Below, one piece after another: positions 5,942 to 46,224 of a stretch of 64,000 nt of DNA. The stretch spans positions 1-64,000 of the IMG/VR virus record IMGVR_UViG_2974707348_000001; one strand, 5' to 3'. Each line of letters begins with the position of its first letter. The stretch's first letter is position 1. Source of the stretch: a virus. Its lineage: Duplodnaviria; Caudoviricetes. A program made the translations under genes and the position numbers. A model generated the notes under the pieces. That model made no database searches and had not been told where the DNA came from. It saw nothing but the letters and a program-made list of their open reading frames with translations.

Positions 5942-6325
5942 TTGGAAGAACAAGTATTAGGAATATCATTAATCTCAGAAGTAGATGGAAAACGTGAACC
6001 ATACTTTGTAGGAAATTTCATTGAAACAATGTTTGGTGTTCCATTAAACACATTAATCGAAAATATTGATGTTTCTGAAAACGAGTCTGATAAACTTTAT
6101 GATGTAGTATTTACTTTCTTAAATAATACTGAGCTAGAGTTTTCACTTCTTAAAAACCAACTAGCAATATGGCAGACTGACGAGCCTGATGTCTACAATA
6201 AGTTTAAAAAAGAATCAGAACTTAGTTCAGAAGCCTATCTTGATAGTTTAGAAGAACAAGAAGAAGAATTGAAGAAAATTAACGAAGAAAAGGCTAGACG
6301 TAGCTTGAAACCTAATGGTATCTAA
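5942..6325 (+). CDS. hypothetical protein
   Basis: TTG start with AGGAG RBS after a promoter. Confidence 0.7.
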   Translation: MEEQVLGISLISEVDGKREPYFVGNFIETMFGVPLNTLIENIDVSENESDKLYDVVFTFLNNTELEFSLLKNQLAIWQTDEPDVYNKFKKESELSSEAYLDSLEEQEEELKKINEEKARRSLKPNGI

Positions 6326-38438: not shown

Positions 38439-38575
38439 TATGTCGTTAGTCGTGGTTGACTGATTGAGTAGCTTGATAGATGATTTTCAATGTATGATGA
38501 GACAATATTGTAAAGGATTCTAAATTGTTAATCGGAGAGTGAAAAATTTTGCAGGTTCGATTCCTGTCGACATAG
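38439..38575 (+). ncRNA. long tRNA-like RNA (137 nt)
   Basis: Acceptor TATGTCG/CGACATA; T-arm GCAGG-TTCGATT-CCTGT; ~105-nt interior with no canonical anticodon arm. Confidence 0.65.
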
Positions 38576-40629: not shown

Positions 40630-41963
40630 ATGATTTTAAAATATGGAGTACATAACGGTAAAGGAGAAACAGTTGTTAATATCGTAGACAACATCACAAG
40701 TGTAGAGGAGGTTGAAGGGAGTAATGCCCCCATCTTCCACCATGAAAGAGGAGATAAACCTCGGACATATTTCGGCAATCTCAAAGAGAATGAATATATT
40801 ATCTTTATGTATTTGATGAACGATGATTTTAAAACAATTAAAATTTACAAGAGGGATTAAACATGAAACGTATAAAAACACAGACTATATCATTTGATAT
40901 GAATGAAGTGAAAGCATTGACAGGTTTTACTTTAAAAAACTCATGGGGGAACTATGTTCTTGAACATGAAAAATATGGAGTTATCCATGACGTCGTTGAA
41001 GGTGAAGATGGAGAATCTTGGACAAATGGTCTGTTTAATTGCCACATGACTGAGTTAGAAGGTGCCCTAAGACATTATGTTCATCAAAATTTTAGTCTTG
41101 ACTATTTCGATATCGTACAGAACGGTCGATTTGAATATGATACTGTTGGGCATACTGTTCAATTCCATTCTGAAAATGAAGTTACAGTATATTTTATTCT
41201 TGAGGATGAAAAATATTGGGAGGTATCTTAATTTACTTTTTATTTTATTGCTTTTAAATATAATATGTAAGGAGAAAATATGGATACAACAACTGCATTA
41301 AAAATAACAGCAACAGCTGTAATTGCGACACTCTTTGAGTATGGATGGTATAAGAGTGTCGAGTGGATTTCTGAATGGAATTATACATGTGGAGTGATAT
41401 GGTTATTAGTGACATTTGCGATACAATTATTTTTAGTTCTTAGATTTACTGGTGATTTTCTTGATTTATTTTAAAGTTTATGCTTGACAAACATTAAAAG
41501 ATATGGTATAATATTTATATAACGCAAGGAGAGAAACATGGAAGAGAAATATATCGAATATCAAACAATGGTAGAAGAAATCATTCTAGGTCGTCGTATT
41601 GTTGTTATTGTTCCAGACAATATGCAAGATTATTCTAGGTTAAATAAAAAGTTAATTAACGATGGAGTTCATTATGAAAATCTATGGCTTGACTTACATA
41701 TGCCAAAAGACAGAATTAACATAATTAAATTAAGTACCTCCAATGGTCGTGAAAAACTTAAGCTTAAACCATTAACATTCTTAGTTGTTACAGACCCTTA
41801 TACTATGGAAGCTCTTGAAGTATATGCTGGTAAGAGTGATATTCTATATGTCGGTATGGATGGAAAAGGTAATTTATTAGATGTAACAGATAATTTAGAG
41901 TATATTTACGACAAATTCTTTCAGCCATTTCAATACTTTGAAGAAGTTCGAGGAGATTTGTAA
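40630..41963 (+). CDS. small hypothetical ORFs (40630-40860, 40863-41231, 41280-41474, 41538-41963)
   Basis: RBSs; promoter at ~41484. Confidence 0.6.
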
Positions 41964-42058: not shown

Positions 42059-42658
42059 ATGAAAGAAATTGATTCAAAAGAGTTCTTTCCTATAAAAAGA
42101 TATGAAGGTATTTATGAAATCAATACTAACGGAGATATTCGTTCAGTAGATAGAATAATAACAACTAAAGGAAGCAATGGAAGGGGCTCTTACACTTCTC
42201 ATAAAAAGGGAGTTCCAATGAAGAGTTTTCAAAATGGTAGTGGTTATCTTCAAATTAGATTAAGTGTAAATGGTAAATGTAGAATGGAATATGTACATTG
42301 TCTTGTATATGATACTTTCATTGGTATCGAAGATAAGAAAAATGATATAGACCACTTAGACCATAACAAATTAAATTGTTCATTGAATAATTTAGAGGAA
42401 ATAACCCATAAAGAAAATATGAGAAGAATGCGTAAATTCTATGGTATAGAAGCTAAACCCAAAGAAAAGAAAAGCCGAAGAACTTATACATATGATGAAA
42501 TGAAGGAAGCTCTTGAAAGACTTAAAGCTGAACCAATGTCTAAGGTCTGTAAAGACTATGGAATTTCTGATAAAGGTTTATCAAAAAGACTTAAGAGTGT
42601 AGGTCTTCCATATCAAATGAAGGAAATAAATAAATACTTTAATAACAACTTCTTCTAG
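42059..42658 (+). CDS. free-standing NUMOD4-HNH endonuclease adjacent to the tRNA island
   Basis: YEGIYEINTNGDIRSVDR; VHCLV..IDHLDHNKLNCSLNNLE. Confidence 0.88.
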   Translation: MKEIDSKEFFPIKRYEGIYEINTNGDIRSVDRIITTKGSNGRGSYTSHKKGVPMKSFQNGSGYLQIRLSVNGKCRMEYVHCLVYDTFIGIEDKKNDIDHLDHNKLNCSLNNLEEITHKENMRRMRKFYGIEAKPKEKKSRRTYTYDEMKEALERLKAEPMSKVCKDYGISDKGLSKRLKSVGLPYQMKEINKYFNNNFF

Positions 42659-42871: not shown

Positions 42872-43217
42872 GGGGATGTAAAGGTTTCGACAGACTATGG
42901 CAATCTCAAATCACATTCCGACAGGGATAGTCGTAAAAACCAAACTAAATATAATTGCAAATACTCAATTAGCTGTAGCCTAAGCTACAAAAAAGTTTAA
43001 GTAATTAAACAGCTAGTAACTGAGACATCGGTAGGTCACTAGTACAAAACAGATGTGTGATGGATTCTGATAAGTCACGATTAACAATCAGAACAGAGTT
43101 AGTAGATAGTTGTTTATTCAAGAAACTAACAATGTGTATCCAATGAATAAACTATGAATGTAAGAAAGTTTTAAGATATGTATAGTTTGGACGCGGATTC
43201 GATTTCCGCCATCTCCA
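42872..43217 (+). ncRNA. ssrA: tmRNA
   Basis: 5' GGGGATGTAAAGGTTTCGAC; 3' GACGCGGATTCGATTTCCGCCATCTCCA with G3.U70; resume context ATAATT-GCA, tag ANTQLAVA* at 42957-42983. Confidence 0.93.
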
Positions 43218-43309
43218 TCATGTTTTTAAAACATATTTAAAAAACATATTACTTTATACTTGACAAACATTAAAAAATGTGTTATAATAGTATATAGTGA
43301 TTATTAAAT

Positions 43310-43777: not shown

Positions 43778-43905
43778 GGGTGCTTAGGATAATAATAAAG
43801 ATAGTCCTAATTGTTAAATGAGTAAAACTATCCAAGTCGACGGAAACTAACAGCCCTTTGTATATTATATGTCAGTGAACCTTTAACGTAGCTGGCATAT
43901 AATAA

Positions 43906-43977
43906 CAGGATATAGTGTTAATGGTAGCATGCGTGTTTTGGGAACATGTAGTGTTGGTTCGAGTCCAGCTATCCTGA
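43906..43977 (+). tRNA. tRNA-Pro(UGG)
   Basis: Acceptor CAGGATA/TATCCTG; anticodon arm CGTGT-TTTGGGA-ACATG. Confidence 0.9.
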
Positions 43978-44182
43978 TGAGTGGTGTATAGTCCACACGT
44001 AAAGTGTCTAATCGGTGTACAACGTATGGCACAACTATACAAGCATGAGAGTATGATAAATACCTGACGGGTGTAGCTACTATTTGTTATAACTACTTAT
44101 GTTAGTTACCAGAAACCTAGTGTATTAAATGTCACAGGGTAAAGGATAGGAACAAAGACCTATCGAATAAGTGACAGCTGGT

Positions 44183-44241
44183 TAGAGTAATAGGTTGCAA
44201 CAGGTCACGACTGTGGAGGGTCCGAGTCCCTTCTGCTCTGT
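44183..44241 (+). ncRNA. mini tRNA-like RNA 1 (no D-stem or anticodon arm)
   Basis: TAGAGTA/TGCTCTG acceptor, hairpin ACAG/CTGT, T-arm GGAGGG-TCCGAGT-CCCTTC. Confidence 0.5.
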
Positions 44242-44300
44242 TGAGGGAGCATAAACCTGGCGAAAAGTTATGTGGAGGAATAAACCTGGCGAAAAATTCA

Positions 44301-44358
44301 TCCGATATTATGGTTAAATAAAGGACGCTTTATGTTGGTTCGATTCCAACTGTCGGAT
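44301..44358 (+). ncRNA. mini tRNA-like RNA 2
   Basis: TCCGATA/TGTCGGA acceptor, ATAAAG-GACG-CTTTAT hairpin, T-arm GTTGG-TTCGATT-CCAAC. Confidence 0.7.
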
Positions 44359-44418
44359 ATAGGTGTTGCTTATTCACCGTATAATAAGCTAGAAAAGTAA
44401 GTATAGTAGGTAAATAAA

Positions 44419-44934
44419 ATGACAAATCCAATTCTAATCAAAGAATTAAGTTTTCAACTTAAAGAATATCGAGATATCTTAACAGATATTATTAAGTTAT
44501 CTGCACGTTCTGATGACCAAGCAAATTCAGCTAAAAATATATTATTTCAAATATTTTATCATACAGAATGGATGATTCAAATGTATGCTGGTAATTATGA
44601 AGAAAAACCATACGGAGACTCCGAAGATTTAAGTTTTAAAGAAGGAAAAGTTTCTCAAAATATTGTAAAATATATTATGGATAACTTCAAAGGTATTCCA
44701 CTTACAGAAGAAGGTTTGAGTAAGTTGACTAAGAAAGAAAAAGAATTTTTAAATCCTTTCGAAGACCTATTATCTATCACCCATAGAATGATAAGAGCTG
44801 TTGTAGATTATTCAGATAGTCATTCTGAAAGTAAAACTATAGACAGAACAGATGCACAACCTATGAGTATTTTATATTTCATTGATTCACTGAAAGAAAG
44901 AACTGCTTATGCTATGGAAAAAGAAGTATACTAA
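44419..44934 (+). CDS. hypothetical protein embedded in the RNA island
   Basis: 171-aa ORF. Confidence 0.65.
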   Translation: MTNPILIKELSFQLKEYRDILTDIIKLSARSDDQANSAKNILFQIFYHTEWMIQMYAGNYEEKPYGDSEDLSFKEGKVSQNIVKYIMDNFKGIPLTEEGLSKLTKKEKEFLNPFEDLLSITHRMIRAVVDYSDSHSESKTIDRTDAQPMSILYFIDSLKERTAYAMEKEVY

Positions 44935-45073
44935 TTTAGGTGACTCACTACCTATACCCCAAATGTGAAGCTTAAAGGGGGTTAATAACACTATTCCCTA
45001 GGTTTGAATCCTTGAAAATTATCGGTAAGCGATGATTGCAAAATTCATAGTGGATGGAGCAAGAGTGTTTCAT

Positions 45074-45147
45074 TGGTTGGTAGCTCAGTTGGTAGTAGCA
45101 CTAGTCTCCAAAACTAGGTGTCGTGAGTTCGAATCTCACCCAATCAG
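45074..45147 (+). tRNA. tRNA-Trp(CCA)
   Basis: Anticodon arm CTAGT-CTCCAAA-ACTAG; canonical D and T arms. Confidence 0.92.
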
Positions 45148-45212
45148 TATGTAAGAGCTGTGCACAGTTACTTACAGAGTTAGGTCAAAGGATTAATTAA
45201 CCTTAACCAAAC

Positions 45213-45266
45213 GGCTTGTTTTTGGTAATAACATGCGTTAACTGAGTTCGATTCTCAGGCAAGTCT
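45213..45266 (+). ncRNA. mini tRNA-like RNA 3
   Basis: GGCTTGT/GCAAGTC acceptor, TAAC-ATGC-GTTA hairpin, T-arm CTGAG-TTCGATT-CTCAG. Confidence 0.7.
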
Positions 45267-45322
45267 TATCAGTACCTTATCCGCTTAAGTAGAAATACAG
45301 CGCATTAGATAAGGGCGATTGA

Positions 45323-45394
45323 ATCCGTTTAGTGTAGTGGTAAGCACATCAGATTCCAAACCTGATAACGTGGGTTCGATTCCTACAATGGATG
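45323..45394 (+). tRNA. second tRNA-Trp(CCA)
   Basis: Acceptor ATCCGTT/AATGGAT; anticodon arm TCAGA-TTCCAAA-CCTGA (A.C mismatch); T-arm GTGGG-TTCGATT-CCTAC. Confidence 0.8.
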
Positions 45395-45607
45395 TTATAT
45401 GTGTGCAAGTCTCTCATAAAGGGAGATGGTGTTAAATGCGGAAGATGTCCGACAGCCATATAAAAACAACACAGCCAAAATACGACTCTATATAGATATT
45501 TTGGTTTGCAATCTTGGTGGTAATCGTTATAGAGACGGTAAGTCCGAAAATGATAGGGAAGGTGTTGTATGCCTATCTACGAGAGTGTTCAAGAAGCTCT
45601 CAATTAT

Positions 45608-45679
45608 ACAGGGTGGGTGGCAAGGAGTCGCATTAGTTTTATAGGCTAAATAAGAGCGGTTCGATTCCGTTACCCCGAA
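45608..45679 (+). tRNA. tRNA-Ile(UAU) with an imperfect acceptor stem
   Basis: Anticodon arm TTAGT-TTTATAG-GCTAA; T-arm AGCGG-TTCGATT-CCGTT. Confidence 0.6.
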
Positions 45680-45881
45680 TATTACTGAAAAGTAATTAAA
45701 AGGAACTTTGAGTAGTTCGCCTTTATGGAAACGGGTTGTTAGTGTATACCGCAAAAGAAAACTATCCGTTACTCTTTACGATATAAGAAGCTTAAAATCA
45801 TGTTTGGTCTTTGCATATCATTCCTAAAGACTAAGGTGTACTGATTGACGGTGCTTAAATGTTATAGAGTTGACAGCCAAT

Positions 45882-46052: not shown

Positions 46053-46129
46053 TCCCACTTCGTTTAAACATTGGAAGAAGACTGCCTATTCGAGAACAGG
46101 CAACCTCGGTTCGATTCCGAGGGTGGGGA
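46053..46129 (+). ncRNA. tRNA-like RNA with an enlarged (10-nt) anticodon loop
   Basis: TCCCACT/GGTGGGG acceptor, D-arm, TGCCT-ATTCGAGAAC-AGGCA, T-arm CTCGG-TTCGATT-CCGAG. Confidence 0.65.
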
Positions 46130-46224
46130 TTTAATTTAAAATATTATTACTCATCTCTTGACAAACTCATTTGATTATGGTATAATAATATATGTAAGTT
46201 AAAAAAACGTAAGGAGAACAAAAT

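Follow-up and report, generated by a model that had tools for sequence, protein, structure and literature searches.

Three short tRNA-like elements in a lactococcal phage tRNA cluster: probable remnants of eroded tRNA genes

When a phage tRNA array contains short elements that fold into the acceptor stem and T arm of a tRNA and lack its D stem, are these selected RNAs or what is left of tRNA genes? The question is raised by the tRNA/tmRNA cluster of a 949-group (Audreyjarvisvirus) Lactococcus phage, which lies in the 64,000-nt stretch of DNA analysed here (the window). An initial annotation had described three such elements (hereafter minis m1, m2 and m3) and had taken the intact pairing of three copies as an argument against decay.

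Here, we compare these minis with known tRNA and tmRNA classes and with their homologs, and conclude, with a probability of roughly 0.6, that they are eroded phage tRNA genes that are probably still transcribed and cut out.

Three minis within a tRNA cluster

The minis and the features around them are:

43260–43288, + strand: perfect sigma-70-type promoter-like site (12/12, with TG extension), from a sequence scan
43906–43977, + strand: tRNA-Pro(tgg), the upstream neighbour of m1
44183–44241, + strand: m1, a 58-nt mini plus discriminator T
44245–44295, + strand: direct repeat read from the sequence, two copies of GGAG..ATAAACCTGGCGAAAA with period 29, in the m1–m2 spacer
44301–44358, + strand: m2, a 57-nt mini plus discriminator T
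44419–44934, + strand: 171-aa ORF (phrog_6282), between m1/m2 and tRNA-Trp
45073–45148, + strand: tRNA-Trp(cca), between the 171-aa ORF and m3
45213–45266, + strand: m3, a 53-nt mini plus discriminator T
45323–45394, + strand: second tRNA-Trp(cca), 57 nt 3' of m3

A check of the sequence found the three elements on the + strand where the initial annotation had placed them, with the linkers it quoted, and unconstrained minimum-free-energy folds of each recovered the layout it had proposed: a 7-bp acceptor, a 9–10-nt linker with GG, a 4–6-bp hairpin and a T arm. The m1 acceptor (44183–44189 paired with 44234–44240) leads into the 10-nt linker ATAGGTTGCA, the hairpin ACAG-GTCACGA-CTGT (4 bp, 7-nt loop) and a 6-bp T stem closed by the T loop TCCGAGT. 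m2 pairs 44301–44307 with 44351–44357 and has the linker TTATGGTTAA, a 6-bp hairpin with the loop GACG and the T arm GTTGG-TTCGATT-CCAAC, while m3 pairs 45213–45219 with 45259–45265 and has the linker TTTTGGTAA, the hairpin TAAC-ATGC-GTTA and the T arm CTGAG-TTCGATT-CTCAG. Unrelated sequences in one architecture, as first described, is an accurate summary once the T loop is excepted. The further description of the elements as having neither a D stem nor an anticodon arm stood in part: the D stem is absent from all three and m2 and m3 carry 4-nt loops, but m1 keeps a 7-nt loop with a U at the U33 position, so that only its D stem can be called missing.

We searched with a descriptor of this layout (7-bp acceptor with at most two G-U pairs, 5- or 6-bp T stem, T-loop motif, 15–31 nt between), which returned exactly m1, m2 and m3 on the + strand of the window, nothing on the − strand, and no further mini in the whole 123-kb genome. 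All three matches fall within 1.1 kb on the tRNA-gene strand. Across 200 dinucleotide shuffles of the window, searched on both strands, the mean was 0.395 matches and three or more were reached in 3/200. Folding-energy z-scores are weak (m1 −0.56, m2 −2.08, m3 −2.08), with 52, 9 and 5 of 200 shuffles, respectively, folding as well or better.

Existing models do not recognize the minis as tRNAs. ARAGORN calls none of them, and the Rfam tRNA model RF00005 (gathering score 29 bits) matches none even at E-values up to 10; m2 gives a sub-threshold match to Rfam tRNA-Sec (21.4 bits, E 1.2, gathering score 47), and Rfam has nothing for m1 or m3. In its metazoan-mitochondrial mode ARAGORN reports no D-replacement tRNA, leaves m1 uncalled and misplaces m2 and m3, whose T arm it reads as an anticodon arm. 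A 7-bp acceptor with a TTCRANN T loop is nevertheless present throughout, save for the m1 loop, in which position 55 is C. The folds also show a stemless D loop beside the T arm, as in the tRNA-like domain of tmRNA, to which the elements had been likened; the resemblance is one of layout (acceptor, GG D-loop remnant, T arm) and not of membership, as the G3·U70 alanine identity pair is absent (3:70 is G-C in m1 and C-G in m2 and m3) and the Rfam tmRNA model matches 42872–43220 and nowhere else in the window. The records consulted carry no annotation at the mini sites.

From the sequence scan, the site at 43260–43288 probably starts a unit comprising tRNA-Asp, tRNA-Pro, m1, m2, the ORF, tRNA-Trp, m3 and tRNA-Trp. 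The next perfect promoter-like site on the + strand is at 46158–46186, and the single + strand terminator-like site between the two is weak (45617–45631); three further ones lie elsewhere in the scanned region. Transcription of the minis probably continues, given that they share the strand of the tRNAs and are flanked by strong promoter-like sites that no good terminator separates. A search of sequencing runs gave 11, each with a share of at most 0.16 and in the form of assembled contigs; the four compared contain pieces of related phages and carry neither RNA ends nor strand. RNase P, RNase Z and the CCA-adding enzyme need no more than an acceptor/T-arm minihelix, so that the minis are probably also cut out as small RNAs. 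The base 3' of the discriminator is T in m1, m3 and the four tRNAs read, and a T in this position favours Bacillus RNase Z. The ATG of the 171-aa ORF is 60 nt downstream of the m2 3' end, and the scan lists no promoter-like site in this interval; a TATAAT 25 nt after m2 was considered as an internal promoter for the ORF and set aside, as it has no acceptable −35 element at 16–18 nt. Among the neighbouring proteins (an HNH endonuclease, an AAA ATPase and other phrogs), none points to a tRNA-related enzyme.

Homologs and slot occupants in lactococcal phages

Homologs of m1 occur in 46 phage records, Skunavirus included, and in 51 IMG/VR stretches, so that this mini is found in two phage genera; the module of tRNA-Pro, hairpin and m1 also occurs in Skunavirus phages. 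Among seven 949-group genomes m1 is complete in five (three sequence forms), reduced to its 3' half in LW81 and absent from phiL47. Seventeen distinct homologs gave standard pairs in 99.3% of 289 pair cells, with both sides changing in 5/17 pairs, figures to be read in light of acceptor columns that are partly fixed by the search pattern and of T-arm exchange through recombination, which could mimic compensation. On each of the five measures all 500 shuffles fell short, and pairing in slid controls was 30–57%. The D stem is absent from all 17 variants, suggesting that the D-armless fold has been kept through some divergence.

The 7-nt loop of m1 takes nine sequences among the 17 variants, with at least four triplets at the anticodon position (CAC, CGC, AGC, CGA and others); the U33 position is T in 16/17 (the exception, L101, has the loop CAACGTA), and the triplet is followed by a purine in all variants but L049 and L101. 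The T loop reads TCCGAGT in the window, TTCGAGT in AM4, and CTCGATT in AM1, WRP3 and 949. In an alignment of 13 Skunavirus m1 sequences with their flanks, the 5' acceptor strand and the T loop are invariant, and 15/18 central and 29/60 5'-flank columns vary, with boundaries one or two columns off. Longer and shorter relatives of m1 measure 64, 53 and 40 nt; no cloverleaf version was found.

m2 and m3 have a narrower distribution. Their homologs, in 17 phage records for m2 and 12 Lactococcus phage records for m3, belong to the 949 group without exception, where m2 is present in 6/7 genomes and m3 in 4/7; the GGAG..ATAAACCTGGCGAAAA repeat pair is kept in 6/7 of these loci. One Skunavirus-like IMG/VR stretch (L146) contains an m2 homolog at 6197–6254, in which the linker GG has become GT, together with a single copy of the repeat. 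The four m2 substitutions within the 949 group (3:70 as C-G, U·G or U-A; 6:67 as U·G or U-A; purine 57) are all structure-compatible, an outcome with an estimated chance probability of about 0.25. Minis of this group are no less conserved than spacers, and substitution rates within it are therefore not decisive. Two sets of similarity matches were rejected as homologs: IMG/VR stretches L145 and L147, chance matches to m2 without tRNA-like context, and 18 Pseudomonas phage records matching m3, which cover the hairpin-3'/T-arm part alone (47% of the query) and reflect T-arm similarity.

In relatives, the slots of m2 and m3 can hold other tRNA-like genes. In phage 949 the m3 slot is occupied by a 70-nt tRNA-Sup(cta), and the 55 nt that follow are identical. 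In phiL47 the m2 slot contains a 149-nt element with acceptor, D arm and T arm, whose T arm is almost that of m2 and whose 60-nt 3' flank is identical; this element was published as a tRNA-Ser with a 58-bp intron (PMC3888941). Both occupants are full elements non-homologous to m3 and m2. Full-length tRNAs at these loci in relatives, which the initial annotation had named as counting against its reading, are thus found in part: as slot occupants here and as true longer versions for several sister mini families described below, but not as longer homologs of m2 or m3. IMG/VR yielded two m3 stretches, each of 53 nt and from 949-group genomes, and seven m2 stretches; four of the seven, in contigs of 949-group size, show the 54-nt match that the search pattern should give for m2, and one is the Skunavirus-like homolog. 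Starting from a cloverleaf, m2 and m3 would each need several separate deletions, an observation that runs counter to a deletion origin.

Two mini families are under weaker constraint than adjoining tRNAs in Skunavirus

Skunavirus loci preserve minis alongside their longer counterparts. At one locus, versions of 71 nt (tRNA-Leu(gag)), 68 nt and 58 nt form a series; others run from a 70-nt tRNA-Trp to 47 nt between GTAA repeats, from 67 to 47 nt, also at GTAA, and from 63 through 55 to 48 nt. The m1 series itself runs from 64 through 60, 59/58 and 53 to 40 nt, its final step falling between GGTG repeats. Microhomology was present at the deletion junctions of all three steps checked, and four Skunavirus sister families have longer or complete counterparts at homologous loci, identical outside the gap. 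We also identified hybrids in which the 5' half of m1 continues, from the T loop on, into the 3' acceptor strand of the adjacent 47-nt family, leaving the acceptor halves unmatched.

For a census of constraint we took 80 Skunavirus loci, picked via a neighbouring protein gene with tRNA content disregarded. The 56 m1-type copies comprise 39 intact ones, 9 with an A1·A72 mismatch and 8 that are broken or hybrids. By comparison, tRNA-Pro/Trp copies, which were located through their middle part, have an acceptor or T-stem mismatch in 0/78 (versus 8/56 for m1, Fisher p = 7e-4). In the 47/67-nt family, 9/23 distinct sequences have a stem mismatch, against 0/47 distinct tRNA-Pro/Trp (p = 1e-5). Both m1 and the 47/67-nt family are therefore under weaker constraint than the adjoining real tRNAs. 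The most common Skunavirus m1 form is the 53-nt one, in which the hairpin is lost, and among tRNA-free loci 14/27 have at least one mini, downstream of the last annotated genes. The T-loop census left out the one-mismatch acceptor class, with about 1.7 chance matches expected per site (an estimate).

These results overturn the initial argument that intact pairing in three copies speaks against decay. Deletions proceed stepwise in relatives, where hybrids also occur; minis are broken much more frequently than real tRNAs; and the window m1 itself has C at the invariant U55, where the 98%-identical AM4 copy has T.

Deletion origin, alternatives and known systems

We propose that m1, m2 and m3 descend from tRNA genes in which small deletions removed the D stem together with some or all of the anticodon arm. 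Such deletions could be promoted by short direct repeats inside the genes (GTAA..GTAA just past the D-loop GG; GGTG..GGTG) and by the near-identical T-loop segment of adjoining genes. The residue would comprise an acceptor stem, a short linker in which the D-loop GG survives, a T arm and, in some cases, a hairpin that is either left over or fortuitous, and it would presumably decode no longer. Because an intragenic deletion leaves both gene ends in place, the residue is always acceptor, GG linker and T arm, and the shared architecture would then follow from how deletions arise rather than from common descent or design. In favour of this origin we weighed the slot occupants, patchy presence, length series, hybrids, mismatches, mutated invariant positions, the changing loop and triplet of m1, and rejection by tRNA finders. 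The m1 covariation, the abundance of minis and the invariant 5' acceptor strand and T loop of Skunavirus m1 run counter to pure decay.

The m1 covariation and the mini abundance also keep under consideration two roles that the initial annotation had suggested. One is processing punctuation, with tRNA-derived minis retained as RNase P/Z cut sites that separate tRNAs, structured spacers and the ORF mRNA. We regard this as possible but doubtful. It fits the position of the minis on the tRNA strand, in an interval bounded by the promoter-like sites at 43260 and 46158 and free of good terminators, the scan result between m2 and the ORF, and the T that follows the discriminator in m1 and m3 as in the four tRNAs read. 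In 7/7 949-group genomes, moreover, the 60-nt ORF leader is directly preceded by a T arm and acceptor 3' strand (m2 in six, the phiL47 element in one), the cassette exchange falls exactly at the element 3' end, and the acceptor and T arm are conserved around a variable centre. Yet minis persist in tRNA-free Skunavirus loci beyond the last annotated genes, broken and hybrid copies are tolerated, m1 is halved in LW81 and missing in phiL47, m3 is missing from 3/7 genomes, and tRNA-Pro, a real tRNA, already lies upstream of the ORF. The other role, which we consider improbable, is that of decoys: CCA-tailed minihelices that would titrate factors acting on tRNA acceptor ends or elbows, such as AbiE/MenT-type nucleotidyltransferase toxins or other tRNA-end-targeting defences. 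Factors of this kind would see the acceptor, T arm and GG; the frequency of minis in Skunavirus and the sharing of m1 by two genera would suit such a role, and AbiE is reported to be active against Skunavirus, likely via nucleotide transfer to tRNAs (PMC13064643). Against it, elbow positions are mutated (U55C in the window m1, U54C in AM1/949, loss of GG in the L146 m2), copies decay and are often absent, and the escape mutations reported for 13 lactococcal systems map elsewhere (PMC12184496). Acceptor sequences are unrelated between families, indicating that no single tRNA is mimicked.

A broader claim, that the m1 type and perhaps the whole mini class is a selected anticodon-free tRNA-like RNA, kept and exchanged as a cassette by two lactococcal phage genera, RNase P/Z-cut, CCA-tailed and serving as punctuation or as an acceptor-end decoy (for example against AbiE), strikes us as unlikely. 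That m1 is a working D-armless decoding tRNA, like mitochondrial tRNA-Ser(AGY), is very improbable: its stem of 4–5 bp covaries and closes a 7-nt loop with a near-constant U33 and following purine, but the triplet differs between close relatives (CAC, CGC, AGC, CGA), the commonest Skunavirus form has lost the hairpin, the metazoan-mitochondrial search returned no D-replacement tRNA, and the loops of m2 and m3 measure 4 nt. Chance resemblance in AT-rich spacer DNA is hardly credible. The m1 folding energy is no better than that of shuffles, and 61/200 shuffled windows give at least one descriptor match; however, the three matches sit together in 1.1 kb of the tRNA strand, whereas 128 kb (both strands) should yield 0.395, the m2 and m3 T loops are the canonical TTCGATT, and the conserved homologs with their covariation refute this explanation.

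If the deletion origin holds, the locus is an unannotated example of phage tRNA-array erosion, in which microhomology deletion and T-loop recombination yield closed minihelix stubs. In Skunavirus, the best-studied dairy phages, such stubs would be nearly as frequent as real tRNAs (64 intact minis alongside 89 ARAGORN tRNAs in the 80 genomes), a caution that a tRNA-like stub with intact pairing is no evidence of function. If the minis were instead selected RNAs, the deletion series would record tRNAs being repurposed and not merely dying, and phages would carry decoding-free tRNA mimics, which bears on operon RNA processing and on the arms race with tRNA-targeting defences.

The closest known counterparts are tRNA pseudogenes and truncated tRNA genes of phage clusters and prokaryotes, which like the minis are tRNA-derived, missed by finders, variable between close relatives and decaying. 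Prokaryotic tRNA gene fragments, however, are described as mostly 3' or 5' halves from integrating elements or CRISPR spacers (PMC9897764), whereas the minis are internal deletions that keep both ends as a closed acceptor/T-arm minihelix and form a whole length series at one locus. No account of phage minis like these appears in the main texts of the literature consulted, and the available text of 949-group and 936-group genome papers reports tRNAscan/ARAGORN tRNAs only. The tRNA-like domain of tmRNA shares with the minis the acceptor, a stemless GG D loop, the T arm and a helix replacing the anticodon stem, but the minis have no G3·U70, mRNA-like domain or pseudoknots and are much shorter (53–58 nt, compared with some 350 nt). 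D-armless and armless mitochondrial tRNAs of nematodes and mites resemble the minis in length (42–60 nt) and in having no D stem, but they decode with a conserved anticodon arm (PMC6158502, PMC2797822). By contrast, m2 and m3 are without an anticodon loop and the m1 triplet is unconserved.

MALAT1 mascRNA is a tRNA-like module with demonstrated processing, and tRNAs punctuate mitochondrial transcripts. Processing has likewise been demonstrated for the tRNA-like GUT15 RNA (PMC6152437). These are tRNA-shaped, non-decoding and excised by RNase P/Z from longer transcripts, and the minis could work in the same way; unlike mascRNA and GUT15, the phage minis show decay, and their processing is a prediction. 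RNase P, the CCA-adding enzyme and some aminoacyl-tRNA synthetases accept minihelices as substrates. Synthetic acceptor/T-arm RNA minihelices are laboratory constructs (PMC4695843); what the minis conserve is their coaxial acceptor/T stack, which in m1 has 7+6 bp against 7+5 in the synthetic ones.

The mini-tRNA-like elements and their transcriptional setting

By ARAGORN, the 40.5-45.7 kb interval of the window carries seven tRNAs and one tmRNA, all on the + strand; Rfam confirms six of the tRNAs and the tmRNA. Three further elements, hereafter minis, lie in this cluster close to an open reading frame:

44183-44240 (+): m1, mini-tRNA-like element
44301-44357 (+): m2, mini-tRNA-like element
44419-44934 (+): 171-aa ORF (phrog_6282), between m2 and tRNA-Trp
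45213-45265 (+): m3, mini-tRNA-like element

The initial annotation had described a 7-bp acceptor, a linker with a central GG, a short hairpin and a T arm in each mini. This description matches the sequence exactly and the same architecture is returned by unconstrained folding of each element, with the refinement that the 4-bp stem of m1 still closes a 7-nt loop and m2 and m3 carry tetraloops. Folding energy is by itself unimpressive (z of -0.56 for m1 and -2.08 for both m2 and m3). A descriptor requiring a 7-bp acceptor, a T stem of 5/6 bp, a T-loop motif and 15-31 nt in between had no matches in the window other than m1, m2 and m3, which all share the strand of the tRNAs, and nothing further in the full 123-kb genome; dinucleotide-shuffled windows scanned on both strands gave 0.395 matches on average and reached three in 3 of 200 cases. 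The tRNA models of ARAGORN and Rfam rejected all three minis.

Promoter-like sites at 43260 and 46158 (+) are perfect (12/12 with TG) and enclose a single weak terminator-like site, a layout which suggests that tRNA-Asp, tRNA-Pro, m1, m2, the 171-aa ORF, tRNA-Trp, m3 and a second tRNA-Trp probably share one transcript. The promoter-like set around the cluster is strikingly uniform, with TTGACA-17-TATAAT plus the TG extension matched perfectly at 41484, 41998, 43260, 46158 and 47449, all on the + strand. No protein encoded near the minis indicates tRNA metabolism.

Slots and deletion series in related phages

Positions 43900-45400 are 88-95% identical to Lactococcus phages of the 949 group (Audreyjarvisvirus), and parts also match many Skunavirus (936-group) phages. 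We compared the homologous regions of 949, AM1, LW81, AM4, WRP3, phiL47 and Skunavirus 63302, whose records leave the m1, m2 and m3 sites unannotated. Among 949-group genomes m2 is present in 6/7 and m3 in 4/7. In phiL47 the m2 slot holds a 149-nt element with a different but perfectly paired acceptor, a D-arm-like hairpin and a T arm nearly identical to that of m2, after which the 60-nt leader of the 171-aa ORF follows unchanged; PMC3888941 presents this element as a tRNA-Ser with a 58-bp intron. Some acceptor/T-arm element precedes this leader in all seven genomes. In phage 949 a 70-nt tRNA-Sup(cta) stands in the m3 slot, immediately followed by the 55-nt spacer and tRNA-Trp that otherwise come after m3. 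The initial annotation had held that full-length tRNAs at these loci would refute its reading, and on this count the two occupants speak partly against it: different longer cassettes fill the m2 and m3 slots, but they are not longer versions of m2 or m3, which we did not find in phage records or IMG/VR. Substitutions in m2 within the 949 group are structure-compatible, and in its only Skunavirus-like homolog the GG is gone and three of the four loop bases differ, with the stem kept. We infer a deletion origin for m2 and m3, whose copies are few and nearly identical, by analogy and from the slot evidence; within the 949 group, selection and recency are not distinguishable from sequence rates.

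The m1 family is larger, with members in 46 phage records found by BLAST (mostly Skunavirus, 80-83% identity) and in 51 IMG/VR stretches found by pattern scan. These give 39 distinct sequences, or 38 without an unrelated match (L016/L036), in lengths of 64, 60, 59, 58, 56, 55, 54 and 53 nt, with 40-nt forms in further genomes; all lack a D stem. Three sequence forms occur in the 949 group (window/AM4, AM1/WRP3 and 949), LW81 keeps only the 3' half and phiL47 lacks m1. Invariant T-loop bases are gone from 949-group copies: position 55 is C in the window but T in the AM4 copy (98% identical), and position 54 is C in AM1, WRP3 and 949. Among 17 distinct hairpin-bearing variants, standard pairs make up 99.3% of pair cells, and both sides have changed in five pairs, of which two lie in the hairpin and three in the T stem. 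None of 500 shuffles reaches these values, and pairing falls to 30-57% in slid controls. This covariation offers genuine support for the fold, subject to two caveats: the search pattern fixed part of the acceptor, and recombination demonstrably exchanges T arms in lactococcal phage tRNA arrays. The 7-nt loop takes nine sequences among the 17 variants, with no conserved triplet at the anticodon position, and in 13 sequences the 5' acceptor strand and T loop are invariant and the centre variable (region boundaries being slightly off register).

Scanning all fetched loci with the descriptor revealed many unrelated mini families with one layout in lactococcal phages, several of them with a longer parent at the same locus. 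The tRNA-Leu(gag) of 71 nt in MV10L and 68 nt in 63302 has, in Phi91127, phi93 and 8R06S, a 58-nt form that is identical save for a 13-nt D-arm gap. A 70-nt tRNA-Trp has a 47-nt derivative from which 23 nt between two GTAA words are gone, a 67-nt element is shortened to 47 nt in a derivative with a GTAA junction of this type, a 63-nt element has derivatives of 55 and 48 nt, and the 53-nt m1 gives a 40-nt form by loss of 13 nt between two GGTG words. Since GTAA directly follows the D-loop GG, such deletions automatically spare the GG, which explains the central GG of the initial annotation. Hybrids also occur, in which an m1 5' half continues across a T loop into the acceptor 3' strand and flanking sequence of the adjacent element, the signature of recombination between near-identical T-loop segments.

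We used the adjacent Holliday-junction endonuclease gene to choose 80 Skunavirus loci, thereby avoiding selection on intact stems. Downstream of this gene lie 89 tRNAs (ARAGORN), with none in 27 loci, and 64 intact minis of at most 62 nt (descriptor); at least one mini occurs in 14 of the 27 tRNA-less loci, several of which end at contig ends. The m1 5' half was found at 62 sites in 55 loci; with six unrelated sequences dropped, the other 56 divide into 39 intact copies, 9 with an A1.A72 mismatch and 8 broken or hybrid ones. By contrast, copies of tRNA-Pro and tRNA-Trp, located by their middle parts only, have an acceptor or T-stem mismatch in 0/78 cases (Fisher p = 7e-4, with copies related by descent). 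Stem mismatches likewise affect 9/23 distinct sequences of the 47/67-nt family versus 0/47 distinct tRNA-Pro/Trp sequences (p = 1e-5, kinship ignored). These comparisons place minis under a clearly weaker constraint than working tRNAs.

Origin and possible roles of the minis

We favor the reading, with a probability of about 0.6, that m1, m2 and m3 are tRNA genes eroded by internal deletion. The shared shape would then be an outcome of the deletion mechanism, and the eroded minis would likely still be transcribed and likely be cut out as minihelices. The covariation of m1, its invariant 5' acceptor and T loop around a variable centre, the structure-compatible substitutions in m2 and the number of minis speak against pure neutrality. 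For this reason retention as RNase P/Z punctuation, one of two roles raised by the initial annotation, is a less likely alternative, to which the acceptor/T-arm element before every 171-aa ORF leader also lends weight; minis could act in the manner of mascRNA-type processing modules.

The other role, as decoys, is improbable; the obvious candidate target would be AbiE, for which PMC13064643 lists activity against Skunavirus and a likely action by nucleotide transfer to tRNAs. The minis resemble D-armless mitochondrial tRNAs, but without a conserved anticodon, and a decoding D-armless tRNA is nearly excluded, as is chance resemblance, the least probable reading of all. They share the layout of the tmRNA tRNA-like domain, but lack its defining G3.U70 and mRNA-like body. 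Eroded tRNA genes of this kind are best filed as a new tRNA pseudogene variant, in which internal deletions keep a closed minihelix, in series and in large numbers; we found no earlier description in the literature searched, including main-text passages of relevant phage genome papers.

Neighbouring elements and mobile genes

Several other features of the region were recorded:

38439-38574 (+): 136-nt element in which a perfect 7-bp closing helix, acceptor-like, and a canonical T arm (TTCGATT) surround a 105-nt insert
42059-42658 (+): HNH/NUMOD4 homing-type endonuclease gene
42872-43217 (+): phage-encoded tmRNA with a tag that ends in ANTQLAVA, 111 bits in Rfam
43846-43860 (+): word ACTAACAGCCCTTTG, also present, or as close variants, in many Skunavirus loci
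43978-44182 (+): tRNA-Pro/m1 spacer with conserved inverted repeats GTGTATAGT..ACTATACA and GTCAC..GTGAC
45607-45680 (+): tRNA-Ile(tat), called by ARAGORN
46053-46128 (+): tRNA-like element of 76 nt; acceptor paired, T arm canonical, anticodon loop replaced by a 10-nt loop on a 5-bp stem

The 76-nt element, called by neither ARAGORN nor Rfam, is kept in 7/7 949-group loci with G-U-compatible acceptor changes, and the perfect promoter-like site at 46158 lies downstream of it. The 136-nt element lies 2 kb upstream of the tRNA cluster and resembles long elements of phiL47 (118 and 149 nt). ARAGORN also finds the tmRNA in AM1, LW81, AM4, WRP3 and phiL47, and finds none in phage 949, which has an HNH endonuclease gene between tRNA-Arg and tRNA-Asp; all six GenBank records of 949-group relatives leave the tmRNA unannotated. 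In Rfam the tRNA-Ile(tat) reaches only 19.8 bits against a gathering score of 29. At what is apparently the same locus in 949, LW81 and phiL47, beyond the 3' end of the second tRNA-Trp, ARAGORN reports tRNA-Met(cat), so the window copy may be a mutated tRNA-Met/Ile2 or a pseudogene.

In both phage genera, ACTAACAGCCCTTTG or close variants stand from a few to ~45 bases upstream of many different tRNA or tRNA-like cassettes, and the word could represent either a conserved leader or an arm for recombination. Cassettes are exchanged at exact boundaries with spacers conserved, as in one slot used by tRNA-Trp or the TAGGATA family. Homologs of the HNH/NUMOD4 gene occupy other positions within the tRNA region of AM1, WRP3 and 949, and a transposase gene lies in that of LW81 and 949; mobile genes may drive cassette turnover. 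The inverted repeats of the tRNA-Pro/m1 spacer could reflect a structured RNA or a further deletion series; in Skunavirus they also adjoin tRNA-Pro and m1, and the intervening 130 nt are often missing.
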